This document shows positions 2,761-40,762 of a DNA stretch of 64,000 bases, piece by piece. The stretch's first letter is position 1, and each line of letters starts with the position of its first letter. Both the position numbers and the translations under genes were made by a program. The notes under the pieces were generated by a model. The model worked only from the letters and a program-made list of their open reading frames with translations, did not search any database and was not told the DNA's origin. The DNA comes from Prorocentrum cordatum (Eukaryota): positions 558,001 through 622,000 of the forward strand of contig CAUYUJ010000292.1 of NCBI GenBank assembly GCA_963575745.1, given 5' to 3'.

Positions 2761-3148
2761 ACTCCTCCTCCTCCTCCTCCTCCTCCTGCTTTCCCTCCTC
2801 CTCCTCCTCCTCCTCCTCCTCCTCTCCTCCTGCTTTCCCTCCTCCTCCTCTTCCTCATCCTCCTCCTCCTCCTCATCCTCCTCCTGCTTTCCTCCTCCTC
2901 CCCCCCCCTCCTCCTCCTCCTCCTCCTCCTCCTCCTTCCTCCCCTCCTCCTCCTCCTCCTCCTCCTCCTCCTCCTCCTGCTTTCCCTCCCTCCTCCTCCT
3001 CCAACTCCCCCTCCTCCTCCTCCTCTCCTCCTCCTCTCCTCCTCCTCCTCCTCCTCCTCTCCTCCTGCTTTCCCTCCTCCTCCTCCTCCTCCTCCTCCTG
3101 CTTTCCCGCCTCCTCCTTCTTCTCCTCCTCCTCCTCCTCCTCATCATC
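2761..3148. repeat. (CCT)n microsatellite
   Basis: Direct reading; many similar CCT/GGA tracts occur throughout the window. Confidence 0.95.
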
Positions 3149-4024
3149 ATCCTCATCATCCTCATCATGGGAATGGGAATGGGTCTCTGGGGGCGTCCAC
3201 ATACGAGCTGGAAAACAAAAAGACTGGGCCTGAACCCTTTGAGTTTCAGCTGTGTCACATCGCCCTGAGGGCCTACAGGAGGATCAGCTGGCCCCGAACG
3301 CTGGGGGTGGGGGCCCACAGGCGATTCGTGGCGACTCGTTGGTGGGGGACCCGAGAGCCACGACGCACCACCGATCTGAGAGGGCATTCAATTAGGGGCC
3401 AACGATCTATCGTGGAAGGGAGAACAGGCGCGGGGGGGAGGCAGGCGCGAGAAGGGGAGGTGCTCCACAACAACTGACAGGCCAAACGAATTACAAATTC
3501 CGACGAGGTGCCATCCTTTTATCTCTCTCGGGCGCTCCCGCCTAGGCGTACAGGCCGTCGGGGAGGAAGGACATGTCCTCATAACAGAATCTCACCACTG
3601 CCTCCAATGATGTAGATCTGCTCGGCTTCAATCACTGAAACATAAAGGAGCGGCCCCCTCTGAAGGCGCAGGACCAGCGGTCCAGACATTAAGGCGTTGC
3701 ACACCGACAGAGGGGGTCAAATATCACCAATACGAATCAAAGAAGGCACCGTACTTGGGGCGAGCTGGCGACGGAGCGCGAGCGGGGGCCGCGCGCCGCC
3801 GGAGGGACCCCCCTCGACGCGGCGCGCGGCGGGCTCGGTTCCGTGGGGGCGCCATTCGTAGAATATAAACCATTCCACATCAGTGCCGAATGCGATGAAG
3901 ATAAACTTCTCCACTGCAGTGTTAAATAGTGCGGCTCAGCAGTGTCCAAACTTCCGCTTACTGGAATATCATATGAGTGCCTTCCACGGCTTCAGTCTGG
4001 ACCAAAAAGGAGCTGCAACCAAAA

Positions 4025-7000
4025 TTATTTCATTCGAGAGCGGGTATGTCGGCGAACGGGAACTGTAACTTTAGATTGTGCCGCCGCTCTCGTTGCTGCT
4101 TCCAACGTCACAACGCCTTGCTCCACTAAGGTCAAGAGTCTCTCACTATGGGCGCGTAGCATCAGACGCTGGTGTGCACTCAACCGTGGTCGTGTCACTT
4201 CTTCTCGTACTCGTCCAGAAGTTTCTGCGCTGCTCGCTCCAGCGGACCCCGAGGAGCGGGGCCCATCTTCACGATGCCTTGATATCCCTTGAACACATTC
4301 ACCAGTAGCTTCTCCATGCCGTCGTGGTCTCGGCTGAGGGCGAAGACGATCTTGGTCATCTCGGGCTGTCCGTCCTTCTTCTTGGCGGGTTTCGCTCGGC
4401 AGTGAAGTACCACCTCCTGTAGCTGCTGCGCCGTCTTGCCCTCGACGGACTGGCTCCAAAACTTCTCCATCTCGTGCTGGATTCCCTCCCCTAGATCTCC
4501 TTTCGCCATGCCTTGTAGCATCGCTGTGAACACGTGCACATACGGCACTCCGAGAACTTCGAGCTCCTGAGTCTTGCCCTGCAGCCTGGTCACCTCTTTG
4601 TGGTAAGCGACTCCTGCGGCCTTCATCGCCAAGCAGATGGGGTGCGTGCTGAGAAGCAGGACGGTTCGCCACAAGATTCCCGTTACCTCTCTGAGCTCCG
4701 CTGCGTTGGACAAGGCGAGACGTGCGAGGATGAGCACCAGCTTTGCCACCGTCTTTTCTTCGCTGCTGTCGACGATTTCGTTGGCCTGCCTTTTGCGTCT
4801 TTGAGCGGGTGGTTCGCCAGTTCCTTCTTGCCGTAGTCCCCACGCTGGGGCCTTCAGCTCGAAAGGCATCGTCTTCAGCACTGCGTAGAGAGTCGAAAGG
4901 TGGAGCGTGTGACTGAAGGTGCTCTTGCAATCCCGAAAAGGTGTCAGCCTCGAACGAGCATAAATGGCACCGGCGACGATCGGGGTGTAGAGGGCCTCCT
5001 AGATATCTGGAGCGATTGACACATACACCTCCTCGTAGAACGCTTTTTACTACATGTTGCTGTGTTGCCACAACTGAGCCATATACACCTTCACAATACG
5101 GGCACACGTTTGTGACGACTAAGGAGACCCACGGGTCGCGTAGTCCATGATAAGCAAGTCTATGATGTGCAACCGATTTGAATGAGTTAAACTTCTTTGG
5201 GCAGGTCGCCCCCTCCTCCATCTCGAATCCACATACCCACTCCTCAGGCTCTTGCTGTCGACACGGGGCGCATGGAGGGATAATGCGAGGCACCGTCGAG
5301 GGGATCCATCCAGGTGGGGGTATCGCCGATGAGTGGGCTCCTTGACGAAGCCGTGTGAAATCCATCTGTGCAAACTCCTCCCCCAGCTCTGGATCACGGA
5401 AGATCTGGAGAAACCCCAGACGAGCCATACTCCCAACTGTACCTCCCTCATCATCCATCTCGCTCAGGCTATCAATAATGTCAGACTTCACTCGTTTGGC
5501 CCACGGGTTTGCACGATCTGTGATGTCGTCGCCGATAGTTGTTTCCTCCGAATCGAAAGCGTGCGTGCCGAACATTGCGGTGAGTACTTGATCATTTTGG
5601 TGCGGCGAGCGTGCGATAGCTTGATACCGTTTCATTCTGCGAACTCGAGCTTCTAACTTACAGGGAGCCATGCGCCAATACTCTAGCACCTCCGAGGTCG
5701 TCATCGACTTGTGTTTAGTACGTGTTTTGCCATCCACCACCTCCTCCTGCTGTGTATGAGCGGCGCCTCTCATAGCAATACGTGCATAGCGTGCAACTAA
5801 CTTATCTAAGGCCTGCCAGTTGTTTTCATTCAAAATAAAACACTCGTTGCCGTGCAACGCTGCGTTCTGAACGCAGCAAATCAACATGCCTCGCCTTGCT
5901 TTCCAGGGAGTGCGTTTCAGGGTCCAAAAACGCCCCAGGGAGTGAAACGCCACTTCCACAGCACGGCGTCTTTTCTGAAACTCTGGCGAGAAGCTACAAT
6001 TGGCGGCGACCTCAGCTCCAAGGTACCTGGCGTGTGGCTTATGGCGAGCGGGCAAAAGAATTCTACCTTGCCTCAGGTTCAGCGCGTCACGGTATGAGCC
6101 TGGCCCCGCGAGCACGGGAATGATCTCTTGCTTGGAGCGGTTCTGGCGGCAGCCGATGGTTTCCAGCGAAATGTCGAGCTCCTCGTTCGTCTCGATACTC
6201 CTGCTAGTTAGCTCTTCCAGTCCCTCTCCTTCTTTGCCCAGGATGGTCTTCGACAAGTCATCGGCGTACTGGCACAGCGATAAGTCCACGGTTCGTTTCG
6301 TAAATGGGCTTTCTATCCTCAACTCCTCATTCTCGATTCCTTTTTCAGTCAGCGCTCGAGTCCATTGATTGACCCCAGTCTGAAATCCAAGGACAAAAAG
6401 ACGCACCACATATGGATCACCCATCAATGCCCCGCAAGTTGGCTTGAGTAGTGTAGACGTGCCGTTCATGCTCGGGAGGGAGATGACCGCATCGTGGTAC
6501 CGTTGCTGTCCAAACTCTCCGCCCAGGTCTTCTCTCATAAACTCCATGCTCGCGTTGTCAAGCTCCGTCCACTCAGTACTTCCAAAAGCATTGCTTAGGT
6601 CGTGAAAGTGTTGTAGACAGCTTCGACCAGCTTGCTTGATCCGATAGAGGGTGGTATTTACTGTAATGATAGCGTTCTCCTTACAGCGTCCTTTTAGAAA
6701 TCCATGTACTGTATGGGGCATCAGCGGTAGCGACGAGTTGCCTGCGTACCAAGCTTTGCCTAGAGGAGCCAGCAGATGTACCGTGCGTAGCCCAAAAGCC
6801 GTGTCTCCGATGTCCGTGACGCCTGCCGTCTTCTTTGGCCAGGAAATGCCCTGACTCGTGTGCCAGTAGGTAGGGGTGCGTCCAGCTGTACGTATTCGAA
6901 CAAATCCGTCTTCGATCACTCGCTTGAAAAGTGGTGCTTCGCGAATCTGTAATCCTAGTCCAAGTCCCCGTCCTGCTGGTGCCACGTCCTCTGGTAACTG

Positions 7001-8743
7001 CGGACCACTGCCCATGAGAAGTGCGATAAGCTCGAGAGGTGCGGCCCAGGGAGGTACAGCTCGACGCTTTGCTGCTCTGCCAAGATGTTTGCGAACTCTG
7101 TGAAAATCTCCTTTCGCTGCTTTCCGATGTGACTCATCCAAGACTGCCATTGCTTCCAAATCCGTCCGTTGCTCCCGCCACTCATGCCAGTCATTCAAAA
7201 GTTGCGTACCCATGCCACCTTCATGTCCAGGTAAGCTCCATTGTTGCATCCACTGCGTGCTGCTCAAGCCGGCTGTGTGAACTGCAAGGTGGTACCTGCG
7301 CTTCGTGCCAAACTTTGTGCCTGCCGCTCTGCGAGAAAGTCGGTGTACCTCAGCGTGCTGTCGTTTATTCCATGCTTCCCATAGTGCGTCTAGCGTGCGT
7401 TCCTGAAACCGAAGCCATTCGCGATGTCGATATTCCTTCATCCGTTGGGAAAGTGCCTTCAGCTCTATCTCGAGCGCGTCCTTATCCTGCTCAATCATGT
7501 CCGTGTCGAACTTCGATCTTGTGTCCATTCGTTTTTTGAGTAAGAATTCCCTTCGTGTCCTGCGCAATTGATATTCTGGATCATCATATAAAGACTGTCG
7601 TGTGAATAATTCTTCACCCACCGCTATCATAAGAGATTCCAAATATTCGAACAGCGGGTCGGGGGAGGCGTGATTGATGAGAGCTATCACCTCCTCGGCG
7701 TTCTGCTCCAGGTGCTGCTCGATCTGCGTGATGAACTGTTCCCCCTCCTCGCTGCCTGCCAGAGAGTATGCCTGCATCAACTTATCACGGTCCCAGCGAA
7801 CTCCTTTGACCGCCTGGAAAGCTCGTGCGCCTGGGAGTCGAAACTCCACATGTAGTGGAACGTGATCTCGTCGGAACTTGCTGGGTATTCGCTGTGTTTG
7901 TCTGCCCAATCGAAGAAGTGGACCGCTGGTGCGCGTCATTTGTGAAAGTGTCTGAGGTATGGCCATATAGTCTACGATCGACGAAGCTCCCTCGGTGCCA
8001 TACCAAGTAGCGATGTCACTCCCCGTCGTCGGCGCGTATAAATAATGCTTCTCCAGTAGCTCACGAAAGGCACGGCCCGCGGCATGTTCTCGGCGTGCAC
8101 CCGCGGGGAGCACGGCGGAGGTCTCCACCAGATATTCGCCGCCCCGTGCCGTGTCATAATCTTTACCGAGCCCGTCGTTGAGATCCACTCCAAGGATGGG
8201 TACACTGCGGGTCGGCGTCGAGCTAATTATCAGATCCAACCAATCCGTGAGTGCCGTGACGGTCTTATCATATACCTGCAGCGCCTTCACCGTGGTGGGT
8301 CGTGGGGGATAGTATGCGCCGATCACCGTGAGATCCCACGAACTCGACGATACCCGCACCGCTAGCCCTCGGCCAGCGAGATGTGCGGGTGGAACTTGTA
8401 CTTTACGAAGATGCTTCTGTCGAATTTTTGCTCCAAAGGAAATGAGAACGCCCGTGGACTTGTTGGTCATGGAACCAGCGGACCATCCTGCATCAATGCG
8501 CCACCTGCTGCCACTGCGAGATTGCTCCATTCTTTCCTTAGTGCGGCGCTGGGTGCCCACGAGCGTAATTGCGTCGAAATTAGAACAAGCCAACTCAATC
8601 TCTTCGAGACGATCCCCCGCGGTGGCCGCGAGGGGATTGAAGTGAAGCATGCGCCAGACGTGCGACTGGTTCAGCGTCAGGTCGTGTGCCTGTTCTCCGC
8701 ATCTGGAAGATAACGCCGCCAGCAAGCCGCCTGCCGCCCTCAT
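4025..8743 (-). CDS. LINE polyprotein: AP-endonuclease (EEP) + reverse transcriptase + three C2H2-like zinc fingers (~1572 aa from ATG 8743; alternative ATG 8650)
   Basis: EEP motifs HFN, GAYYPP, GVDLN, VDY, RDH; RT motifs RTVHLL, HGFLKGR, HDLSNAFGS, GALMGD, YADD (6257-6268), RYLG; fingers CPKKF..HRLAYH, CPYC..QQHV, CHLC..EHLQSH. No internal stop. Confidence 0.92.
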   Translation of the reverse strand: MRAAGGLLAALSSRCGEQAHDLTLNQSHVWRMLHFNPLAATAGDRLEEIELACSNFDAITLVGTQRRTKERMEQSRSGSRWRIDAGWSAGSMTNKSTGVLISFGAKIRQKHLRKVQVPPAHLAGRGLAVRVSSSSWDLTVIGAYYPPRPTTVKALQVYDKTVTALTDWLDLIISSTPTRSVPILGVDLNDGLGKDYDTARGGEYLVETSAVLPAGARREHAAGRAFRELLEKHYLYAPTTGSDIATWYGTEGASSIVDYMAIPQTLSQMTRTSGPLLRLGRQTQRIPSKFRRDHVPLHVEFRLPGARAFQAVKGVRWDRDKLMQAYSLAGSEEGEQFITQIEQHLEQNAEEVIALINHASPDPLFEYLESLMIAVGEELFTRQSLYDDPEYQLRRTRREFLLKKRMDTRSKFDTDMIEQDKDALEIELKALSQRMKEYRHREWLRFQERTLDALWEAWNKRQHAEVHRLSRRAAGTKFGTKRRYHLAVHTAGLSSTQWMQQWSLPGHEGGMGTQLLNDWHEWREQRTDLEAMAVLDESHRKAAKGDFHRVRKHLGRAAKRRAVPPWAAPLELIALLMGSGPQLPEDVAPAGRGLGLGLQIREAPLFKRVIEDGFVRIRTAGRTPTYWHTSQGISWPKKTAGVTDIGDTAFGLRTVHLLAPLGKAWYAGNSSLPLMPHTVHGFLKGRCKENAIITVNTTLYRIKQAGRSCLQHFHDLSNAFGSTEWTELDNASMEFMREDLGGEFGQQRYHDAVISLPSMNGTSTLLKPTCGALMGDPYVVRLFVLGFQTGVNQWTRALTEKGIENEELRIESPFTKRTVDLSLCQYADDLSKTILGKEGEGLEELTSRSIETNEELDISLETIGCRQNRSKQEIIPVLAGPGSYRDALNLRQGRILLPARHKPHARYLGAEVAANCSFSPEFQKRRRAVEVAFHSLGRFWTLKRTPWKARRGMLICCVQNAALHGNECFILNENNWQALDKLVARYARIAMRGAAHTQQEEVVDGKTRTKHKSMTTSEVLEYWRMAPCKLEARVRRMKRYQAIARSPHQNDQVLTAMFGTHAFDSEETTIGDDITDRANPWAKRVKSDIIDSLSEMDDEGGTVGSMARLGFLQIFRDPELGEEFAQMDFTRLRQGAHSSAIPPPGWIPSTVPRIIPPCAPCRQQEPEEWVCGFEMEEGATCPKKFNSFKSVAHHRLAYHGLRDPWVSLVVTNVCPYCEGVYGSVVATQQHVVKSVLRGGVCVNRSRYLGGPLHPDRRRCHLCSFEADTFSGLQEHLQSHAPPFDSLRSAEDDAFRAEGPSVGTTARRNWRTTRSKTQKAGQRNRRQQRRKDGGKAGAHPRTSRLVQRSGAQRGNGNLVANRPASQHAPHLLGDEGRRSRLPQRGDQAAGQDSGARSSRSAVCARVHSDATRHGERRSRGGNPARDGEVLEPVRRGQDGAAATGGGTSLPSETRQEEGRTARDDQDRLRPQPRPRRHGEATGECVQGISRHREDGPRSSGSAGASSAETSGRVREEVTRPRLSAHQRLMLRAHSERLLTLVEQGVVTLEAATRAAAQSKVTVPVRRHTRSRMK
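4195..4869 (-). CDS. Second LINE ORF (224 aa, unknown function) overlapping the C-terminus of the RT ORF in the +1 frame
   Basis: ATG 4869 (MPFELKAPAW...) to TGA 4195; helical, globular-looking composition ending GPAPRGPLERAAQKLLDEYEKK, whereas the overlapping RT frame reads as R/G/S-rich shadow sequence; lies inside the TSD-bounded element. Confidence 0.75.
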   Translation of the reverse strand: MPFELKAPAWGLRQEGTGEPPAQRRKRQANEIVDSSEEKTVAKLVLILARLALSNAAELREVTGILWRTVLLLSTHPICLAMKAAGVAYHKEVTRLQGKTQELEVLGVPYVHVFTAMLQGMAKGDLGEGIQHEMEKFWSQSVEGKTAQQLQEVVLHCRAKPAKKKDGQPEMTKIVFALSRDHDGMEKLLVNVFKGYQGIVKMGPAPRGPLERAAQKLLDEYEKK

Positions 8744-8867
8744 CAGGCAGTGGCCGTTCAGGGCCTGATCAACTGCGGGTACCTGCAGGACGAGGGGGTG
8801 CTCCGATGGAACGGCGCCTGTCGCCAAACCTGCGCTCGTGCCATATGGGCGACTATCCTCATCATCC

Positions 8868-8945
<78 letters not shown>

Positions 8946-9445
8946 TCATCATCCTCCTCCTCCTCCTCCTCCTCCTCCTCCTTCCCTCCCTCTCCCTCCC
9001 CCTCTCCCACCTATGGTAGTGGTGGTGGGAAAATCCGCCGAACAAGGCCGCCCAGCAGCGCCGCTGGCGCGGCCTCCTCCGCCTCGGCGGCGGCCCTGGC
9101 CAGGCCCGTCCTGAACCCAGCAGCGGTGTGTACGCCACGCCCTCCTGGCTTGCCCAGCGGGGCGTGCACACAGTTCCTGGGTCCAAGATGGGCCTGGCCA
9201 GGGAGCGTTGGATATGTATAGACTTCGTCGCCCGATTCGAGTTGAGAAAATTCGACGCTAAGACAATTGCCTTCTCTCGACGCGCTCTCTTGAACCGTAA
9301 TCCAGATCCACAGAAACGTTCTACGAAAAAAGAAGCTCCAAGAAAACGCCCACGGCTCCGTCCAGACTCTGAATTTTCTTCAGCGAAATCAGGAGTCCAC
9401 GAAAATTGACGCTCTTCTTTCAGATGATTGATGGGTATCTACAGA

Positions 9446-9550
9446 TAGTGCCAGGCTCCAGCTTCGCCTCCCGCATCTCGCTCAGCAGCGCCAGCGCCCG
9501 CTGCCACTGCTCGCCCTTCCCGCACGCGCTAATCCCAGCGCTGTAGCTGA
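9446..9550 (-). CDS. PPR block, 1 motif (exactly 105 nt)
   Basis: SYSAGISACGKGEQWQRALALLSEMREAKLEPGT; bounded by a Helitron-like 3' end (9551) and a TCTGTAG 5' end (9445). Expression unproven. Confidence 0.75.
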
Positions 9551-11869
9551 CTGGTGTGAAAACCCGTGGACGATCCACGGCTGCCAGGTCGAGGTGTCTG
9601 ACCCGAACACGCGTGTGTCGCCGACAAGGGTTGCTGCAGGCTCCGGGCTCCGGGACTGATGGCTGTCTTCGAATGTCTTGGGAGGGTCTGGGGCTATCTC
9701 GGAATGGTCCCTGGAAGGTTCTTGTGGCATCGAAAGCTTGCCGCAATCCAGTCTCGCTGCAGCCTCTTGCAGGAGGAGGCGGTGGAGGAGGGTAGCGATA
9801 CTGGAGATGGGGGGAGTGCAGGCTCCCAGAGGACGCCGAGGCAGACGACATACGAGGTCCCCCTTTGTCACCCCTGGAAGGGGGTCTTAGGAGGAAGAGA
9901 GAGCAGTCCAGAGAGAGGGAAGTGCAGGCTCGCAGGCGAGGAAGCCAGGGCGGGAAAGAGAGAGGAGGGTCCCCCTTTGTCACCCCCGATGGCTGGGAGG
10001 GGGCCCACCGCGAGCTCGGGTTTGCCGTGGGCAGCGAGAAGGGGGTGAGGCGCACGAGAGCGAGCATGAGGCCGAGGAGGAAGAGTGTGGCTCTGGAGCG
10101 CGGGCGGTCTCCGGATTCTGTTGGAGGCCTTTGGAGACAGCAAAGGGTGCGGGCGCTGCTGCAGTGGCTCCGAGGTGTCGACATGCCCCCCTCACCGCCC
10201 CGAATCGGCTGTGGGGACCCCAGAGTTGCTGGAGCGTGGATCAAGGGGAGCCAAGGAGCAGGAGGGGGAGGAGGAGGAGGAGGAGGAGGAGGAGGAGGAG
10301 GAGGAGGAGGAGGAGGAGGACGGAGGAGGACGGAGTAGGAGTAGGAGTAGGAGTAGGAGTAGGAGGAGGAGGAGGAGGAGGAGGAGGAGGAGGAGGAGGA
10401 GGACGGATGAGGAGTGGGAGAAGAGAGCCAAACGGGGAGAGGATGCTCGTTGGGTCTTCATATGGGTAAGTAGGTTTGTTGAAGGCTGCTGGGGAGGCAC
10501 AGGGGCGGAGAGCTCTCTTGGGAGCTCCGGCGGAATCATCACAATATCTTGGGAGGGTATGGGGTGTATCGAAATGGCTCAGGTCTTCGTTCGGGGTCCG
10601 CAGCTTTCTTTGGGTGCCGTGGCTGATGGCGCTCTGCTGAAAGCTCCTTGGCAAGTGTCGGAGTCTCTTGGGGAGACTCTGGTGCGTCGGAATGGTCCTG
10701 GGAAGGAGTGGTCCTGGTAAGGTTCTTGGCCCATTGGAAGCTGCGGGCGGCCCATCGTCTGGGCTTTCTTCGGACCCTATTGGAGGCCTCTTGGAGGTCT
10801 TTCCAGAGCCTCGGGGGCGTTTCTGAAGCCACGTTAGAGCGCTCTTGGGCCGTCGTGGGGGCCTGTAGGGACGTCCTAGGGCCATCTGGAGGGGACTGTT
10901 GATGTTGGGAGTCTTGGGACGTCTGGGGGCTATGGTGGATGGTTCGAGCCGTTTTAGGGGCCCGCTTTGGGCCCTCTGGCAGCTCTTGAGGCCTTCTTGA
11001 GCCACTTGGGGGATCTCCTGAGCTGTCTCCGGGGCTTCTCGAGCTGTCCTGGGGCGATGTTGGCGGTCTCAGGCAGGAGCGCCCAGAATCGAATCGATAA
11101 GTCGAATCGGCGATCCAAATGAATCGGATCGGTGGGAATCGGCAGCCGAGTAGGGAAAAGTCGAATCGGCAGACATCGGCAGGCTAGTATGCCTGAAATA
11201 GGAAATTGGAACCCAAATCGGAATCCCATGTCGAATCGAATCGGAATCGGAGGCCATCGAAATCGAATCGAATCGAATCGAAGGAATCGAAACGAGCCCT
11301 GCCTCAGGCCGTCTTGGAGCCCGCGTTGGGACCTGTTGGGGAGCTCCTGGTGCCTTCTTCGGCCTTTTCTTCGGGGCCACCAAGGGCTCTAATTATGAGG
11401 CTGTCTTGAGCTTCTCTTGGGCAATATTCGGGCCCTCTGGGGGGCCGTCTTGGGGTACTTGGCGGGGCCTCCTAGACCGTCTTGGGGCGATCTGGGATGG
11501 CCTTGGAGCAGTCTGGGGCCGTTCTTGGCCCGAAACGGCGAGAACCTGGAAAACCGAATTAACAACCAAAAACATTAATGATTTTGGCCTTGGTGGAATA
11601 TCATCGGGGTCCGATTCGACTGTTTTGGGATGCACCTGGCCCGTCGTCGGGCCGTATTGGGCTGTCACGGGGCTCCGTTCGGGTTCTTTTGGGCCGACCT
11701 CGCGCGCTCCGGAGCGTCTCAGAGCCGTCTGGAACTGACAGAGGCCGTCTGGGACTGCCTATGGGCTTTCTGGAGCCGTCGGAAAGCGCCGTGGCGCTTC
11801 GGGTGCCCGGGGGCAGCTTTATATTTTTCGCCCCTGTTGCACGCGCAACGCCCAGAATTGTAGTACAGA
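9551..11869 (-). mobile_element. Non-autonomous Helitron-like element A
   Basis: Minus strand: A|TCTGTACTAC... to CCGTGGA-TCG-TCCACGG hairpin, spacer, CCAG|T; no TSD; no Rep/helicase ORF. Confidence 0.75.
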
Positions 11870-11996: not shown

Positions 11997-13359
11997 CTAG
12001 AACTGACCCGTGGACTACCGTCCACGAATGCCAGTCGTCAGCCTGCCCGTGCTGCTGCTCATTGTTTGGTGTGTTGTTTGCTTGATGATTCAGACGGCGT
12101 CCAGAGCAGCGCTAGCAGCATAAGCGGCAGCAGATCCAGGGGCACGGGCCGTAGCAACAACAGCAGCTCTTCTTCCTTTTCCTCCTCCTTCGCCCTTTCT
12201 TCCTCCTCGTACTTGGCTCGTCCTCGTCTTCCGCCACCTCCTCCTCCTCCTGGTCCTCCTCCTGGTCCTCCTCCTCCCCCTCCTCCTCCTCCTCCTCTTC
12301 CTCCTCCTCCTCCTCCTCCTCCTCCTCCTCCTCCTCCTCCTCCTCCTCCCCTCCTCCTCCTCCTCCCCTCCTCCTCCTCCTCCTCCTCCGCCTCCTCCTC
12401 CTCTTCCCAATCGTGCGGTTCCGACTCTGCGGGCAGAAGCACTTCTTACGGAGGACAGCGACGACGGGGAGGAAAAGGTCGCAGAGACAGCGTTCCAAGG
12501 GGGCCGCAGCGGGATCTGACAGCTATTGTGTGCACCCCCCGCAGCGCGGGAGGTGTTAGAAGAAGTGTGGGGTATGGCTTTGTTCCCACGCACCAGCACT
12601 TTCTGGGAGCCAAATCGGAGCAGTTCGGTGGGAGCTGCTGGAGGCCTTCGCGGAGCCAGTGGGGTTTCACTTGTTCCAGTAAGCCGGGGGCTTCTGGGAG
12701 CACGTCAGAGCCGTGTCGAGGGAGCTGCTGGAGGCTTTCTGGGAGCCCCTGGGGATTGTCCCGGAGGCCGTCTTGGAGCCTCTGGGGGATTCTTTTGGGG
12801 GCTCGCTGGCTGTGGGAAGGGCGGGAGTGGGGGGGAGCGCTCCAGAGTTGGCCCTGTTGGGCCTCCCTTGTGGCCGTCTTGGGAGGCTGTTCGGCCGTTT
12901 TGGGAGTCCCCGGAGCCGTCTTGAGGTTCCTCTGGCGAATGCCCCCGAAACCCGTCTTGGAGCCTCCCGGGGGTTTCTTGGAGGCTTGCTGCCGTGGGAG
13001 GGGCGGAAGGGAAGGGAACGCTCCAGAGGTGGCCCTGTTGGGCCTCCCTTGAGGCCGTCTTGGGAAGCTGTTCGGCCGTCTTGGGAGACCCCAGAGCCGT
13101 CTTGAGGGCCTCTGGGACCGTCGAACGATTTGGGAGGCTTCTCGGGATGGGTTGCTTGTCTTTTAGCCGCAGAAGCGATCGTAAGAGGAAAAGCATCAAA
13201 AACCTGGGAAAAGGGCCTTCCGGGGCACTCGCGAGACTCTCCTGGGCCACGACGGCGTCGATCCACGAGCGGGGCCGCCGAGGCGCCGCCGCCGCGGGCC
13301 CGCCGAATGTAAGCAACGTGTCTTTCTGGCACGCGCTGAGCTCGGTAGTGTAGTCTAGA
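11997..13359 (-). mobile_element. Non-autonomous Helitron-like element B (family shared with C, G, L)
   Basis: G|TCTAGACTAC... to CGTGGAC-GGTA-GTCCACG hairpin, 8-nt spacer, CTAG|T. Confidence 0.8.
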
Positions 13360-13486: not shown

Positions 13487-14852
13487 CTAGAACTGACCCG
13501 TGGACTACCGTCCACGAATGCCAGTCGTCAGTCTGCCCGTGCTGCTGCTCATTGTTTGGTGTGTTGTTTGCTTGATGATTCAGACGGCGTCCAGAGCAGC
13601 GCTAGCAGCATAAGCGGCAGCAGATCCAGGGGCACGGGCCGTAGCAACAACAGCAGCTCTTCTTCCTTTTCCTCCTCCTTCGCCCTTTCTTCCTCCTCGT
13701 ACTTGGCTCGTCCTCGTCTTCCGCCACCTCCTCCTCCTCCTGGTCCTCCTCCTGGTCCTCCTCCTCCCCCTCCTCCTCCTCCTCCTCTTCCTCCTCCTCC
13801 TCCTCCTCCTCCTCCTCCTCCTCCTCCTCCTCCTCCTCCCCTCCTCCTCCTCCTCCCCTCCTCCTCCTCCTCCTCCTCCTCCGCCTCCTCCTCCTCTTCC
13901 CAATCGTGCGGTTCCGACTCTGCGGGCAGAAGCACTTCTTACGGAGGACAGCGACGACGGGGAGGAAAAGGTCGCAGAGACAGCGTTCCAAGGGGGCCGC
14001 AGCGGGATCTGACAGCTATTGTGTGCACCCCCCGCAGCGCGGGAGGTGTTAGAAGAAGTGTGGGGTATGGCTTTGTTCCCACGCACCAGCACTTTCTGGG
14101 AGCCAAATCGGAGCTGTTCGGTGGGAGCTGCTGGAGGCCTTCGCGGAGCCAGTGGGGTTTCACTTGTTCCAGTAAGCCGGGGGCTTCTGGGAGCACGTCA
14201 GAGCCGTGTCGAGGGAGCTGCTGGAGGCTTTCTGGGAGCCCCTGGGGATTGTCCCGGAGGCCGTCTTGGAGCCTCTGGGGGATTCTTTTGGGGGCTCGCT
14301 GGCTGTGGGAAGGGCGGGAGTGGGGGGGAGCGCTCCAGAGTTGGCCCTGTTGGGCCTCCCTTGTGGCCGTCTTGGGAGGCTGTTCGGCCGTTTTGGGAGT
14401 CCCCGGAGCCGTCTTGAGGTTCCTCTGGCGAATGCCCCCGAAACCCGTCTTGGAGCCTCCCGGGGGTTTCTTGGAGGCTTGCTGCCGTGGGAGGGGCGGA
14501 AGGGAAGGGAACGCTCCAGAGGTGGCCCTGTTGGGCCTCCCTTGAGGCCGTCTTGGGAAGCTGTTCGGCCGTCTTGGGAGACCCCAGAGCCGTCTTGAGG
14601 GCCTCTGGGACCGTCGAACGATTTGGGAGGCTTCTCGGGATGGGTTGCTTGTCTTTTAGCCGCAGAAGCGATCGTAAGAGGAAAAGCATCAAAAACATGG
14701 GAAAAGGGCCTTCCGGGGCACTCGCGAGACTCTCCTGGGCCACGACGGCGTCGATCCACGAGCGGGGCCGCCGAGGCGCCGCCGCCGCGGGCCCGCCGAA
14801 TGTAAGCAACGTGTCTTTCTGGCACGCGCTGAGCTCGGTAGTGTAGTCTAGA
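13487..14852 (-). mobile_element. Non-autonomous Helitron-like element C (duplicate of B)
   Basis: Same termini and body as B. Confidence 0.8.
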
Positions 14853-15272
14853 CGATGTTGGGCTCCACATTCACCTCCTGCATCTCGCTCAGCAGCGCCA
14901 GCGCCCACTGCCACCGCTTGCCCTTCGCGCACGCGCTTATCCAAGCGCTGTAGCTGATGACGTCGGGCTCCAGCTTCGCCTCCCGCATCTCGCTCAACTG
15001 CGCCAGCGACCGCTGCCACTGCTCGCCCTTCTTGCTCGCGCTGACCCCAGCATTGTAGCTGATGACGTCGGGCTCCAGCTTCGCCTCCCGCATCTCGCTC
15101 ACCAGCGCCAGCGCCCGCCGCCACTGCTCGCCCTTCTCGCACGCGCTGATCCCAGCGCTGTAGCTAGTGACGTCGGGCTCCAGCTTCGCCTCCCGCATCT
15201 CGCTGACCAGCGCCAGCGCCCGCTGCCACTGATCGCCCTTCTCGCACGCGCTGATCCCAGCATTGTAGCTGA
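14853..15272 (-). CDS. PPR block, 4 tandem motifs (exactly 420 nt)
   Basis: Four in-frame 35-aa repeats of consensus SY[NS]AGISACEKGEQWQRALALLSEMREAKLEPDVI. Confidence 0.85.
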
Positions 15273-17114
15273 CTAGTGTGAACCCGTGGAGAATCCACGG
15301 CCCGCAGGTCCAGGCAGTGGTCCCGAACGCGCACGTGTCGGAAGCACTGGAAGCGTCAAAAGTAATGTGTTTTTGCTGATCGCGCGAGGCCTGGGCGCGA
15401 TTAGCAGAAACACATAGGTTTTCAGACGCAATCAGAGTAAGGGGGCCCGACCGATCTTACAGAGTCCCTGTGCGCGAGAAGTTCGATGTGGGGGGTGGAC
15501 GCGTGGGGGCCAGAGTTGGGCGCTACGTTGGAGGGCCTCGTTTGAGGGCCACGTTGGGGGGTCTCGTCAGGGTGTCATGGCTGGGGCCAACGTTCGCGGC
15601 CCTGCCAGGGGCCATGTTTGGGGGCCGCGTGCGGGGTTCAGGGGCACATGTGACGGTCGCGTTTGAGGGTGTGGGGTTCGGGGGCAGATGTGACGGTCAC
15701 GTTTGAGGGCAATGGTTGGGGGCTGTGTGTGTGTGTGTTGGGGCCACGTTTGGGGGCGCCTGGAGGCTACGCGTGGGGTTGACGTTCGGGGGCCACGCTT
15801 ACTGGGGCGGTAGGGGCGAACTTCGGAGGCTTTGTGTGGGGGGGCCGCCTTTGGGGGTCCCGTTTGGAGGCCGCGCATGGGGCCGACGTGTAAGGGGCCA
15901 CGTCCAGGGGCGATCTCAGAAAGCAGTCGGGGAGCCCCGGGGGCACTGACCTGGAAGCGTGAAGAGGAATGGGTTTTTGCTAATCGCGCTGGGACTGGGC
16001 GCGATCAGCAAACTCAAGGGTTTTCAGGCACCGCCAGAGTGAAGGGGCCACGTTAGCGGGCCCGCGCAGCCTGGTCCTGGGGCCATCTCGGGGTTCTCGG
16101 GCCGTCGAGATGGCCGTCTCGAGAGATCGAAGCCAGCAGAACCGAGAGAGCAGCGGTGAGGCCCCCGATACAGCCAAGGGTGCGGGTGCTGGTATACGTA
16201 GGGCCCCCGAACTGGCTGTAGTGGCCTGCGGGCAAAGTCGCTGCGGGCCTGGGTAATGGGTAAGAGATCTCGCGAATGTTGGTTGGGATCTCATGGCTGG
16301 CCTCTCGGGAGCCTCTGGGAGACAGTTTGGGGGTTTCTTGGTAGCAGTTTGGGGGCGTCTTGGGGCCTCTTGGGCCCTCTTTTGGGGCCTCTTGGGGGTC
16401 TTTTGGGGCGCTTGGCGGCCTCTGGGGGGCCTCTTGGAGCCTCTTTGGGGCGTCCTGGGGCCTCCTGGGGATGTCTTGGGAGCGTCCCGGCGTTTCTTTG
16501 GGGCGTCTTGGGGCTTCCTGGGGGCCTCTTGGGGTGGAGGCCTAATTTTTTCGGTTCCGAGTCCCTGTCTGGGGCCTCTCTTGGTGCCTTCTTGGGGCCC
16601 TCTTGGGCTGTCTTGGGCGACTCCTGGGCCGTCTTGGGGCCCTCTTGGGCCGTCTTGGGGCCGTTCTGAGGCCTCTTGGGCCGTCTCGGAACGGTCTGGG
16701 GGGCCTCTTGGGCGGTCTTGGAGCGTCGGAAAGCAGAAAACGCGAGAAGGCCAGACACATCGAAAACGAAGAAAATCAACGATTTTGGCTTCTGCGGCCC
16801 CTCTTGGAGGTACACTTCGAGCGCTCTAGGGGCCTCGTGGACGCGTCCCGGGCCGTCTTGAAGGCGTCCTGAAGCCATTTTGAGCGTCTCGGATCCACTC
16901 TTGGACCGTCTTGGGCCGTCTTCGGGACCTCCTGAGGCCGTCTTGGGGCGATCTGGGAATCCTGGATCAGTCCGCCAGCGGACCAAGGGCCTCCCGGGCC
17001 CGTCGGGAAGCGGCCCGGATGCTCTCCGAGCGGCCCGCGAGCTCTCTGGGCGGCCCGGGGCGCTGCCACTGCCTGACCTTCTCGCGCGCGCTTCGCCCGG
17101 AATTGTAGTACAGA
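15273..17114 (-). mobile_element. Non-autonomous Helitron-like element D
   Basis: A|TCTGTACTAC... to CCGTGGA-TTC-TCCACGG hairpin, GTTCACA, CTAG|T; 3' end resembles element A. Confidence 0.8.
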
Positions 17115-17335
17115 TGGCGGTGGGCTCCAGCTTCGCCTGGGCCGTCTCCCGCATCTCGCTCAACAGCGCCAGCGCCCGCTGCCACTGCTCGCTCTTCTCG
17201 CACGCGCTTATCCCAGCATTGTAGCTGATGGCGGTGGGCTCCAGCTTCGCCTCCCGCATCTCGCTGAAAAGCGCCAACGCCCGCTGCCACTGCTCGCCCT
17301 TCTCGCACGCGCTGATCCCAGCATTGTAGGAGAGA
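17115..17335 (-). CDS. PPR block, 2 motifs (one with a 3-aa TAQ insertion; first bases altered to TCTCTCCTAC)
   Basis: YNAGISACEKGEQWQRALALFSEMREAKLEPTAISYNAGISACEKSEQWQRALALLSEMRETAQAKLEPTA. Confidence 0.75.
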
Positions 17336-20300
17336 CTAGGGCTCACCCGTGGACTACGTCCACTTGCGAGGGGAGGGGGAGGAGGAGGATGAGGATGAGG
17401 AGGAGCAGGAGGAGGAGGAAGACCAGTGTAAACTCAAGAGTCATCAACGATGTTGGAATTAACCCTCCCTCCAAGCTCCCTCTTTATAGGCCCCTACAAC
17501 GGTTCATTTCCATTGAAGGAACTGCCTCGTTGGAAGACAACCGCTTGAAGATCCTAAAGCATGCCAAAACATTGTTCTCGGGATTTCAACGCCACGTATC
17601 AACTTGACTGCTGCGTCTTGACGATCTAAAATCGTGCCAGATCGCCGTTTGTGGGACTTCAACACCGCGAATCAACATAACTGTTGTACCCGCATAATCC
17701 TAAATCCTGCCCAAACACTACTTCTGGTATGTTGATCATGGGTATCCGTGAACCTCTGTGTTTGTACAACGAAATTGCGCGGCGCTAAGGCGAGAGCCAC
17801 AGTTTGAAAAGGAGCCCTCTCAATCCGCGAAGCTCTTGCAAATTGTGATAGTGAATGTGCGCGGCGCTACGGCGAGAACACATTTTGAAAACGGCCCGCC
17901 CTCAATCCGTGAAACTCTTCCAAATGTCTGCAACGAGTGTGCGCGGCGCTACGGCGAGAGCCACACTTTGATAACCCCTCAATCCGTGAAGCTCTTGCAA
18001 TTTGTTACATCGAGTGTCAGCGGCGCTAAGGCGAGAACCACATTTTGAAAATTACCCGCCATCAATCCGTGACACTCTTTCACACGTTTAAAAAGAATAT
18101 GCGCGGCGCTAAGGAGAGAACCACATTTTGAAAACGACCCGCCATCAATCCGTGAAACTGTTGTCACTGTTTAAGATTCAGGGTCGAAAAAGATGGGGAA
18201 GTCTCAGGCGAAACGCCCGGCACGCCCAAAAAAACTGGCTTCGGGGTGCGATACGGAGAAGTATCTACAAGGAGAAGGAATGGAGGAGGAGGAGGAGGAG
18301 GAGGAGGAGGAGGAGGAGGAGGGGGCGAGGATGGGGGGGAGGAGGAGGAGGAGGAGGAGGAGCAGGAGGAGGAGGAGGAGGAGGAGGAGGAGAAGGAGGA
18401 GGAGGAGGAGGAAGAGGAGGACGAGGAGGAGGAGGACGAGGAGGAGGAGAAGGAGGAGGAAGAGGAGGAGGAGGAGAAGGAGGAGGAGGATGGATGGATG
18501 CGACTGCATCGAAGCAGCCCAGACAGGCATCCATCCGACCCTGGTCTACCCCGCGGGCAAGCCAGAGAGGCGGAAACCACCCCCGCGGGGACAAAAGCGG
18601 GACATCCCAGCCTCGTCGTCGTCCTCCTCCTCCTCCTCCTCGTCGTCGCCGTCGTCGTCCACATCCTGTCCCCTCAAAGAAATCGCGCGCCTGTGGCGGA
18701 GGAGAGTGGCGACGGGGAAGAGAAGGAGGCTCAAAATTGTTGACGCTTCGCGTATCCCCACCAGCCCATCCAGAAACGATGCCCAGCTTTTACTGGGGTG
18801 TAGCCCACAGGTGCAGAGAAACGATGCCCAGGGGAGTTGAGGTGATAAGGGAAGTCGGGGAGCATGCAGAATAACAAAGGGCGGGGGAAGCTGTCACGTA
18901 CCCCAAGAGGGGGAGGATGGAGAAGGAATCCTCGTCGGAGGGGGAGGGGGAGGAGGAGGAGGAGGAGGAGGAGGAGGAGGAGGAGGAGGAGGAGGAGAAT
19001 GAGGAGGAGGATGTGGAGTAGGGAGAGGACGAGGAGGACGAGAAGGTGGAGAAGGAGCAGAGGGAGGAGAAGGAGGAGAAGGAGGAGAAGGAGGAGGAAG
19101 AGGGGGATGAACAATTGAAGAGGACGGCGAACCGAAGAGCCAGAAGCGTCTTAAATGCATTTCGGAGATCTTCTTGAGGCTTCTTGGGGGTCTCTTGGGA
19201 GCCTCTTGGAGGCCTCTTGGGCGCCTCTTGGGGCCGTTGGGCGCCTCTTGGGGCGCTCTTGGGGCGCTCTTGGGGGCTGTAGGGGCGCTCTTGGGGCCAT
19301 CTTGGAGGAGATCGATCAACGAAGGGGGGGTCCCTAATTAGCCTCCCCCCTCAGGAGCTCCAAACATCGCCTCTTGGGGCGCTCTTGGGGCGCTCTTGGA
19401 GCGCTCTTGGGCGCTCTTGGGGCCGTCTTGGGGCTCTCTTGGGCCTCTTGTGGGGCCCTCTTGGGCCATCTTGGAGCCATCTTGAGGCCTTGGATGGCCA
19501 TCGGAAGCGAAACGGGGAGAAAGCAAACAACATTGATTTCCCTAAGGTTTTGGGACGATTTTGGCCTCTTCGGGGCCTCCTTGGGGAGCTCTTTGGCCAC
19601 TTGGAGCCGTCTTGGGGCCGTCTTTGGGCCTCTTGGAACCATCTTAGGAGCCATCTCGAGCGATCTTGCGCTATCTTGAGCCTTCTTGGAGCTCATCTTG
19701 GGCTCTCCCACGCGCTCTTGAAGCCATCTTGGGGCCAAAAGAGCCGTCCGACCGCTCGGGGAACCCTCCGTCCAGGTCCAGGGGAGGGGGTAGGGGGAGG
19801 GGTAAACCCTTCCCCAAGGGGGAAGAGGGAGGGGTGGAAGAGGATCTGTTCTAGACCACCTACGCCCAGAGGGCTGGTGGGATTATCGGAGAGAACCGCA
19901 CCCCACACCCCTTGGGACACGCTCGGCGCGGGAGGCGTCGCAGAAACAGCGTCCCCGAGACGCCGCGGCTGCATCGCACAGCTCTTTTCTGCAACCCCTC
20001 CAGTGCGAGAGGTGTCCCAAAAGGTGTGGGGTATGGCCTGTTCGCATCGCAGCAGTTCGGTGGGAGCGGAGCTGCGGAGCTGCTCGAGGCCTTCGAGGAG
20101 CTCGTGGGGCATCATTGGTTCTAATGAGCTGGGGCGTTCTGGAAGCATATTAGAGCCGTTTCGACGGAGCTGCAGGAGGCTCTCCGGAAGCCTCGGGGGA
20201 GCGTCCGGGAGGCCGTCTGGGGGCATCAAGGGGGGCCCCTTGGGCGGGAGGGAGGGGGGGGAGGGGGGCGCGCTCCCGAATGGGCCCTGGGGGCCGTCTT

Positions 20301-21404
20301 GAGAGGCTGTTCGGCCGTCTTGGAACCTCCCGCAACCAATTTGAGGGTCTTGGGCCGTCATAAGGACTCTTGGGGGCTCCCTGGAAGCCCTCCGGAGGAA
20401 TTGGGAAGGGTTGGGATTTTTGTTGGCCGGAGAAGCGATCGTAAAAGGGCGTGCGGAAAACCCAACAAAACGCCATAATTGTTCGTCCTCGTTGCCCTCT
20501 CGGAGGCAACAGGGGAGCCTTGCTGCTACTGGATCCCCCTCCTCCTCCTCCTCCTCCTCCTCCTCCTCCTCCTCATGCTCCTTCGCCTCCGCCTCCGCCT
20601 CCTCCTCCTCCTCTTCCTCATGCTCCTGCTCCTCCTCCTCCTCCTCCTCCTCCTCCTCCTCCTTCTCCCCCTCCTCCTTGTTTCCTCGATTCTTCATCCT
20701 CTCGGTCTTGGATCGTGAATCGTGGATCCTACGACGACGCTCCCCAGAAGACGAGCATGGAAGGTCTTCTGAGTGTCCAAAACGGCTGTTTGGGACCTGC
20801 GATCTGCCTCTCGCCTCTCGTCCGCCCCTCCTCTCTCGGAGGCAATATCGAAGCTACTGAGAGCCTCTTGGGGGCCGTTTGGGGGCCTCTTAGGGCTTCT
20901 TTTCGGCCTCGCATGGGCCTCTTGGGTGCCGTTTGGGCCGCCTTGGGGCCGTCTTGGGCAACCTTGGGCGCCTCTGGGGCTTTCTTGGGGCCGCCTTGGC
21001 CGGCTCTTGGGGCCGTGTTTGGTGCCTCTTAGGCTGTCTTGGGCGCTTCCGGGGCCGTCCTGGGGCTGCCTGGGGCCGTCTTGGGGCCCTCATAGGGGCA
21101 TCTTGGGGCTTGTATGGCCATCGTGGACGCGTCGGAGACGGAAAGCACAGTAACGCCAGACATACACGTTTTCCGAAAGAAATGGTATGAATTTTGCCTC
21201 GTGGAGCTCTCCTGGGTTCCTCCTGGGCCGTCTTCGGAGCCTCCTGGCCTGCCTTGGGTGCCTCTGGGGTTGTCTTGGGGCTCCCTGGGAATGCTCCAAG
21301 GCCGTCCTCGCGCCCCCTCGAGCCTCTCAGAACCGTCCTCAGGCCGTCTGAGGCCATGTAGGGACCCCTCCTCGCACGCACCCGTCCCAATATTGTAAGA
21401 GAGA
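17336..21404 (-). mobile_element. Composite non-autonomous Helitron-like element E
   Basis: A|TCTCTCTTAC... to GTGGAC-GTA-GTCCAC hairpin, GGGTGAGCC, CTAG|T; contains a B-family internal segment (~19890-20480) and nested repeats. Confidence 0.7.
17745..18170. repeat. ~82-bp tandem repeat, ~5 copies
   Basis: GCGCGGCGCTA[AC]GGCGAGARCCACA.TTTGA....CCC.TCAATCCGTGAA.CTCTT recurs. Confidence 0.85.
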
Positions 21405-21614
21405 TGGCGTTTGGCGACACCTTTGTCTCCCGCATCTCTCTCAGCAGCGCCAGCGCCCGCTGCCACTGTTCGCCCTTCTCGCACGCGCTGATCCCAACGC
21501 TGTAGCTGATGACGTTGGGCGCCACTTTTGTCTCCCGCATCTCGCTCAGCAGTGCCAGCGCCCGCTGCCACTGCCCGCCCTTCTCGCACGCGCTGATCCC
21601 AGAGTTATAACTGA
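21405..21614 (-). CDS. PPR block, 2 motifs (exactly 210 nt)
   Basis: SYNSGISACEKGGQWQRALALLSEMRETKVAPNVISYSVGISACEKGEQWQRALALLREMRETKVSPNA. Confidence 0.8.
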
Positions 21615-40740: not shown

Positions 40741-40762
40741 CTTGAGCCAAAATGTCTACGGC
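40741..40762 (-). other. Genomic relic of the dinoflagellate spliced leader (DinoSL)
   Basis: GCCGTAGACATTTTGGCTCAAG versus DCCGTAGCCATTTTGGCTCAAG: 21/22; a second degenerate relic GCATTTTTGGGCTCATG at ~40710-40726. Confidence 0.9.

Follow-up and report, generated by a model that had tools for sequence, protein, structure and literature searches.

In the two-ORF long interspersed nuclear elements (LINEs) of the apurinic/apyrimidinic endonuclease (APE) type, such as L1, CR1/L2, Jockey and I, the open reading frame (ORF) called ORF1 lies upstream of ORF2. The ingi/L1Tc LINEs of trypanosomatids, which inhabit spliced-leader hosts, have a single ORF that encodes the APE, the reverse transcriptase (RT) and C-terminal C2H2 zinc fingers, and we know of no nested 3′ ORF in LINEs of this type. 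In hepadnaviruses the surface-protein ORF (S) is nested in another frame within the ORF of the polymerase (P), an RT, partly over a poorly conserved spacer, and subgenomic mRNAs are used. Here we describe a LINE of the dinoflagellate Prorocentrum cordatum, at positions 4025 to 8743 of a 64,000-nt stretch of genomic DNA (GenBank assembly GCA_963575745.1, contig CAUYUJ010000292.1, positions 558,001 to 622,000), the whole of which we call the window. A second ORF, here named ORF-B, is nested in another frame near the 3′ end of its endonuclease-RT (EN-RT) ORF. The element appears to combine a new gene layout with a long gene overlap kept by selection, and from the sequence we infer how ORF-B may be expressed and what it may do.

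Two systems from the literature are also relevant. SymbioLINE-Dnmt of Symbiodiniaceae (de Mendoza et al. 2018, PMC5890265), as described in the accessible part of that paper, has a DNA methyltransferase (DNMT) as its upstream ORF1 and lacks poly-A, and target-site duplications (TSDs) are reported for it. DIRS-1 of Dictyostelium has its ORF2 and ORF3 overlapping in separate frames, and passages of PMC5006619 give a +1 fusion as the proposed expression. A LINE with a nested 3′ ORF is not described in the full-text literature searched (outside subscription journals and Repbase reports), including the accessible portions of PMC5718144, PMC10666404 and PMC11453091.

Like SymbioLINE-Dnmt as its paper's accessible part presents it, the window element is a dinoflagellate LINE with an unusual accessory gene, and the window copy too has no poly-A after its stop; unlike there, the accessory gene is a 3′ nested ORF and not a DNMT, and no TSD was found. 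With DIRS-1 it shares a long overlap of two protein-coding frames, but DIRS-1, in the same passages, is a tyrosine-recombinase retrotransposon and both of its overlapping frames encode enzymes. The two-ORF LINEs resemble it in having an APE endonuclease (in the window element a putative one) together with RT in one long ORF, many copies with a 3′ bias and a small basic accessory protein; they differ in that our accessory gene is 3′ of the RT, inside the RT ORF in another frame, while the copy at hand has no upstream ORF. With ingi/L1Tc it has in common one ORF in which an APE domain, putative in the window element, and the RT are followed by C2H2 fingers at the C-terminus, and a spliced-leader host, although a Pfam scan detected no RNase H domain in the window element. 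The closest analogy for the overlap would be hepadnavirus P/S, where likewise a structured gene lies in another frame within an RT ORF and the RT-frame overlap is poorly conserved and of low complexity, and which may serve as a model of how a nested gene is expressed through a shorter mRNA of its own. The likeness has its limits, since ours is a LINE and not a virus, the overlap is C-terminal where the viral one is internal, there is no kinship in sequence or fold, and the expression proposed here is read from sequence.

The long ORF (protein P0002, 1572 aa) lies on the minus strand, as do all features of the element given below, with its ATG at 8743 and its stop at 4025-4027. It encodes a putative endonuclease, the RT and three zinc fingers, then an extension of 293 codons past the last finger histidine. 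ORF-B (P0001, 224 aa; 4195..4869) starts at an ATG at 4869, 12 codons past the last histidine of finger 3, in the +1 frame relative to the RT frame, and ends with a stop at 4195-4197; its own frame is open over 4195..4998. The RT frame continues for 280 codons past the ORF-B ATG, of which the last 56 are past the ORF-B stop. The initial annotation of the window had given the same coordinates, with a protein-like ORF of 224 aa that begins, in the +1 frame, just behind the last zinc finger, and an RT frame open for about 280 more codons, and this description is correct.

The layout recurs in relatives. A degenerate DNA pattern of the C-terminal motif of ORF-B matched 17 metagenome loci, among which hmmsearch left two true relatives, L014 (1642 bp) and L016 (2213 bp), and 15 chance matches. 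Because both were found through ORF-B alone, they are not biased in what lies upstream or in the state of the frames. In L014 as in L016, frame 1 ahead of ORF-B encodes a homologous post-RT region and three fingers (BLASTP of this region: window versus L014 6e-25, window versus L016 2e-20, L014 versus L016 8e-42), ORF-B lies in the +1 frame directly behind finger 3, and frame 1 stays open through the whole of ORF-B and past it, for at least 37 codons in L014, where the contig ends, and for 98 codons in L016. ORF-B itself is conserved among the three elements (BLASTP E 7e-11 to 3e-43) at 25-34% identity, the relatives being 25-26% identical to the window protein, and at such identities the three represent old, separate lineages. 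At the protein level, ORF-B is joined to EN-, RT- or finger-like sequence in four of the 159 stored protein models (P0012, P0013, P0088 and P0124).

Judged by this recurrence, ORF-B is an accessory protein under constraint and a part of the LINE. The initial annotation had proposed an inverted architecture with an accessory protein, and had asked how often the ORF lies 3′ of an RT; the nested +1 position in both relatives with DNA, together with the four chimeric or fused models, bears out the accessory protein. A further metagenome scan with an alignment of the family gave 267 pattern matches and no relative, and no relative was found among viral contigs. Eight loci in prokaryote genome contigs were rejected, all being motif-only chance matches in GC-rich bacteria.

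The long open RT frame is not explained by the coding of ORF-B. For each element we made 20000 synonymous-codon shuffles of ORF-B, keeping its amino acids and its exact codon counts, and counted stops in the other two frames. The RT frame has no stop within ORF-B in any of the three elements, where the shuffles led us to expect 4.45 in the window (P=0.0046; 0.45% of shuffles were stop-free), 7.26 in L014 (P=5e-5) and 11.31 in L016 (none of the 20000 shuffles stop-free). The third frame, which serves as a control, has as many stops as expected in all three (8 versus 9.9, 6 versus 7.2 and 17 versus 15.2, in the same order). Within ORF-B the sole route to an RT-frame stop is a T at codon position 3 before a codon beginning with AA, AG or GA, and this is never seen (0/60 such places in the window, 0/87 in L014, 0/86 in L016), while T at position 3 occurs elsewhere in ORF-B at 18/163, 29/179 and 38/193. 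Where the elements code in one frame only, stops in the equivalent frame number 4.3, 7.0 and 5.8 per 100 codons, and its longest open runs are of 150, 25 and 51 codons. By this test the RT frame is held open by selection across ORF-B in all three elements; the openness noted in the initial annotation thus stands but was understated. Codon usage differs between ORF-B and the RT part, with T at position 3 in 8% versus 22% of codons and G+C at position 3 in 72% versus 55%, and the low T of ORF-B follows from the RT frame being kept open over the overlap, so that a foreign origin is not required.

What the RT frame encodes over the dual-coding stretch (4198..4869) is a peptide rich in Arg, Gly, Ser and Ala, with 10% hydrophobic residues and a net charge of +21. 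The corresponding peptides of L014 and L016 are rich in the same residues (R+G 33%, 35% and 27% in window, L014 and L016) and have net charges of +8 and +6. Hydrophobic residues make up 10-15% of these overlap peptides, versus 24-33% of ORF-B and about 32% of the finger region. Beyond the ORF-B stop, the RT-frame tail (4025..4197; 56 codons plus the stop) resembles neither that of L014 nor that of L016 in protein or DNA, the three have no common 3′ untranslated region, and tail lengths vary (56, at least 37 and 98 codons); the first description of this tail as protein-like, at 55 aa, was therefore not upheld. About 150 nt past the RT-frame stop of L016, at about 2077-2100 of that contig, there are some 4-5 units of (AGTCA)n, which may be a 3′-terminal repeat; none was seen in the window copy. 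As an overlapping gene pair, the two frames are both open beyond chance, and conservation is not seen in both products. Selection then acts on openness, and perhaps on composition, not on sequence, and the RT protein probably ends in a long, basic, disordered tail of low hydrophobicity.

ORF-B has many homologues. A search for proteins of similar length found nine, with 30-80% identity, two of which are stand-alone P. cordatum proteins. A profile search that covered 1.84 billion cluster representatives returned 1435 clusters at E≤0.001, of which 475 reach ≤1e-10 and 61 reach ≤1e-30; most are 180-290 aa long, and the 159 stored proteins from the search have a median length of 222 aa. One cluster member (P0163) derives from the transcriptome of a cultured protist, so at least one member of the family is transcribed. 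On these searches, ORF-B is a real and large protein family. Pfam has no family for P0001, and none that is common to more than two of 51 family members; specifically, no RRM, CCHC or esterase-type domain of the kind found in ORF1 proteins was detected with Pfam, and a PDB profile search with the family gave nothing below E 0.5.

The fold comparison that had been suggested was carried out and gave a confident model with no clear match in PDB or BFVD. AlphaFold2 with 51 sequences (predicted local distance difference test 88.3, predicted template modelling score 0.77) leaves residues 1-34 disordered and then places a long helix and a beta-alpha-beta-beta-alpha-beta core with a helical insert, from which ORF-B is predicted to have a basic, disordered N-terminus followed by an alpha/beta fold of ~190 residues. 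With two models, Foldseek against PDB reached best E values of 0.18 and 0.068, without a clear match, and VIA-align best Z values of 7.4 and 7.0, covering a helical hairpin of about 50-55 residues; the BFVD search of viral folds likewise gave no clear match (best E 0.06). Weak Foldseek rows are mostly ferredoxin-like sandwiches, and L1 ORF1p appears once, at rank 36 with probability 0.38, for the first model only; no fold is assigned, and a ferredoxin-like or RRM-like core is no more than a lead. The best ESM Atlas match of ORF-B (0.89, clusters of bacterial hypothetical proteins) was taken as noise. Near-invariant residues are G107, P109, G203, P206, E211, R212, L217 and L218. With only G, P, E, R and L in this set, no Pfam family common to 51 members and a confident fold, ORF-B is probably not an enzyme, and the residues look like a binding or structural set.

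The stop-to-stop frame of the long ORF spans 4025..9010 (1661 codons). The endonuclease region (7847..8569; aa 59-299) contains ITLVGTQ, VIGAYYPP, ILGVDLND, SIVDYMAIP and RRDHVPLHV, of which we take GTQ, GVDLND and DHVP, present in the order we expect, to be APE motifs; Pfam Exo_endo_phos did not match P0002 at E≤1, and phmmer found no PDB sequence match. The RT core (6236..6727) is matched by Pfam RVT_1 over aa 673-836 at E 0.028, which is below the cut-off of that family, and has the canonical YADD in CQYADDL (aa 824-830; 6254-6274). The three C2H2-type fingers (4907..5233) have weak zf-C2H2 and zf-C2HE matches; finger 1 is at 5147-5233, and the last finger, CHLCSFEADTFSGLQEHLQSH, at 4907-4969. 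The ESM-Atlas cluster nearest to aa 1-1290 (score 0.96) has RVT_1 in 100% of its members, zf-C2H2 in 52% and Exo_endo_phos in 37%. Its neighbours are EN-RT(-C2H2) LINE proteins, with RVT_1 in all listed and Exo_endo_phos in 37-86% of members across the clusters. A search with residues 1000-1572 found no long relatives of the RT ORF at E≤0.001.

The element is present in many copies. Run X1 gave 576 contig pieces with 80-100% likeness to it, with a depth of 20-38 over 4100-5500 and of 1-8 over 7700-8900, where the contigs are of uncertain kind and contig depth is a rough measure; runs X2 and X3 had nothing on the element. Such a profile, high at the 3′ side and low at the 5′ side, is the pattern of 5′-truncated LINE copies. 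With an RT that has the YxDD motif and with multiple, 5′-truncated copies, this is probably a dinoflagellate LINE of the APE type, and the window copy is probably intact and young.

The explanation we consider best, and fairly probable, is a LINE lineage with an accessory gene nested at its 3′ end, which has its own AUG and lies in an RT extension that selection keeps open; it would replace an upstream ORF1 or be added to one. ORF-B would be made from its own conserved AUG, 12 codons past the last finger in the +1 frame. This AUG stands at the N-terminus of the family in all three DNA loci, a stop lies in the ORF-B frame of L014 six codons before it, and 8 of the 10 protein models with an N-terminal extension have a Met within 12 residues of the start motif. 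The AUG is about 3.9 kb into the element RNA, with the main frame reading across it, and because of this position and the translation of the main frame ORF-B is probably carried by a separate short mRNA, most plausibly one made by spliced-leader trans-splicing just upstream of the AUG. Dinoflagellate multi-gene transcripts are resolved by trans-splicing of the dinoflagellate spliced leader (DinoSL), according to the accessible part of PMC11453091. The window itself has a spliced-leader relic, described below. A candidate 3′ splice or spliced-leader acceptor is the pyrimidine-rich run ending in CAG at 4881..4903, whose AG (4882-4881) is 11 nt before the ORF-B ATG. AGs also lie upstream of the AUG in L014 and L016, at no fixed distance, and since the distance varies among the three elements the candidate is a weak one. 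No spliced-leader-derived peptide was found ahead of ORF-B in the stored proteins.

The protein may be a non-enzymatic partner that binds or packages the LINE RNA into a ribonucleoprotein, a role analogous to that of ORF1p. Most copies, being truncated from the 5′ side, would retain ORF-B and could supply it in trans, and the trans-splicing could operate on them too. The RT frame might be kept open because nucleic acid is bound by its basic tail, or because the nascent RT has to be brought by the ribosome near the 3′ end of the RNA; the data as they stand seem compatible with either. A bolder version, which we put forward as speculative and rather unlikely in its entirety, is that the accessory gene moved to the 3′ end, where all 5′-truncated, dead copies still have it, that trans-splicing just ahead of the AUG converts any transcript reading through such a copy into an ORF-B mRNA and so makes the thousands of truncated copies a distributed ORF-B factory, and that the RT ORF overprinted ORF-B with a functional, basic and disordered tail.

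Several points weigh against the nested accessory gene as we propose it. The DNA-level evidence comes from three elements, two of which are short metagenome contigs, and within the first 70 nt of L016 the RT frame has stops. No conservation was seen in the RT-frame peptide among the three (best BLASTP E 0.016, over 18 aa), and its richness in R, G and S follows partly from the composition of ORF-B itself. Among copies, 3 of 5 well-supported substitutions inside ORF-B are synonymous in ORF-B and 1 of 5 in the RT frame, and 14 of 23 in the RT part are synonymous; the five agree in direction, in a sample far too small to count as evidence. No fold or family match from Pfam, PDB, Foldseek, VIA or BFVD backs a role like that of ORF1p, or places ORF-B among the known LINE ORF1 protein types (RRM/CTD, CCHC gag-like, esterase and PHD). 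The separate mRNA, the spliced-leader acceptor and the translation of both frames are all readings of the sequence. Finally, this copy has neither a defined 5′ end nor a defined TSD, so an upstream ORF1 may exist in full-length master copies.

The strongest alternative, though one we hold to be somewhat unlikely, is that the tail read in the RT frame does nothing as a peptide and is open only so that ribosomes reach the 3′ end of the RNA, for cis-preference of the nascent RT for that end or for the avoidance of decay set off by a stop distant from it. It departs from our preferred explanation solely in the reason for the open frame. It would account for a frame whose openness is selected while the overlap peptide and the tail are unconserved in sequence or length, and the codons of ORF-B largely determine what the tail is composed of. 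Disordered basic tails, however, also evolve without conservation of sequence, and the net charge is positive in all three elements.

A conventional ORF1 upstream, with the window copy truncated just ahead of its EN-RT start and ORF-B as a third gene, is in our view unlikely. The initial annotation had described the element as bounded by a TSD, with about 110 nt ahead of the ATG at 8743 and no upstream ORF1. We found no direct repeat of at least 9 nt between the flanks at 3600-4030 and 8744-9100, which bears on this copy and not on the family, so that the TSD is not confirmed. The 110 nt hold, being the distance from the ATG to an (ATC)n microsatellite (8855-8953), beyond which lies sequence of a pentatricopeptide repeat (PPR) gene. 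No ORF1 lies between the 5′ end and EN-RT in this copy, as had been stated, but the 5′ end itself is undefined. The frame is open through the microsatellite to 9010, few copies reach the 5′ end (the depth of 1-8 given above) and other dinoflagellate LINEs do have an ORF1, as SymbioLINE-Dnmt does in the accessible part of PMC5890265. Against a lost ORF1, the long ORF begins with a Met about 30 residues ahead of the first endonuclease motif, and P0013, a divergent P. cordatum model, also begins about 35 residues ahead of the same motif.

We regard as improbable a programmed +1 frameshift near the end of the finger region, which would fuse ORF-B to EN-RT and give a protein with two C-terminal variants. 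The ORF-B frame is indeed open upstream of its AUG for 43 codons in the window and 38 in L016, fingers 1-2 and ORF-B share a single frame in P0124, and passages of PMC5006619 propose +1 fusion for overlapping retroelement ORFs such as those of DIRS-1. In L014, however, the stop six codons before the AUG leaves almost no space for a shift site, and no slippery sequence shared by the three elements was seen by eye in the 60 nt before the AUG. The AUG itself is kept in 3/3 loci, P0124 may stem from mutation of a copy or from splicing in the model, and the zero frame stays open for 280, at least 304 and 378 codons, a run for which frameshift systems have no need. The locus thus lacks the marks of a programmed +1 frameshift cassette, and among the frameshift, internal initiation and spliced-leader trans-splicing that had been offered for the expression of ORF-B, the frameshift appears to fit worst.

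It is very improbable that ORF-B is a 3′-transduced host gene or fragment, or an ORF1 that belongs to a neighbouring tandem element, with an accidental overlap, for although its codon usage differs from that of the RT part and most family members are called as stand-alone proteins, its position, frame and overlap are the same in three elements with ORF-B only 25-34% identical, no second EN-RT lies downstream anywhere in the window, the low T at position 3 is what an open RT frame requires, and stand-alone calls are expected from 5′-truncated copies and from gene callers that keep one frame.

A search of the 64,000 nt found a single copy of the element, and of the 100 N letters in the window none is within 3400-9500, where no Rfam family was matched. 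The LINE is located inside or beside a PPR-repeat gene. Tandem units of 105 bp, each a PPR motif of 35 residues from a gene family of very high copy number, are found at 9128-9500, 14817-15272, 17061-17329 and 21403-21601, and the first of these has a contig depth above 1300 in run X1. It had been considered as a satellite target site, which we rejected, as it is the PPR-motif repeat of the neighbouring gene family. A public P. cordatum model, P0012 (1082 aa, 'PROP1-like PPR domain-containing protein'), consists of PPR repeats and pieces identical to the element, and matches 61% of ORF-B at 97% identity; going by these pieces, it is a chimera in which PPR exons, EN and RT pieces of the LINE and most of ORF-B are joined as if by introns.

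Trinucleotide microsatellites (CTC, ATC, AGG and GGA) of 100-400 nt occur at 2762-3163, 8855-8953, 10254-10414, 12217-12407, 13707-13900 and 18282-18490; the (ATC)n tract at 8855-8953 adjoins the 5′ side of the LINE and keeps the long frame open up to 9010. Just past the 5′ side, the 110 nt at 9094-9203 match their own reverse complement at 75%, forming an imperfect palindrome, and in the contigs of run X1 positions 9137 and 9201 are joined on 'opposite strands', while loose ends are numerous at 9094. Further away, the minus strand at 40741-40761 has a spliced-leader relic, CCGTAGACATTTTGGCTCAAG, with one mismatch to what we take to be the DinoSL core (0 expected in 100 shuffles), a hint that a gene copy was retroposed close by.

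Our picture of LINEs rests on layouts with ORF1 at the 5′ side and ORF2 at the 3′ side, or with a single ORF, and in the present lineage, which is large and old, the accessory function could come from another position and from an unrelated fold. Long dual-coding overlaps, here of 224-280 codons, have been known mostly in viruses; in this lineage they are kept by selection in a eukaryotic transposon, and spliced-leader trans-splicing by the host may shape transposon architecture. Gene calls list homologues of ORF-B by the hundreds as stand-alone 'hypothetical proteins', and pieces of the LINE are fused into host gene models such as P0012, so that dinoflagellate gene counts and 'dark' families are inflated. 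Should the reading of truncated copies as a distributed source of 3′-encoded ORF-B be true, the element would represent a new LINE architecture and a eukaryotic-transposon case of long, selected gene overlap.

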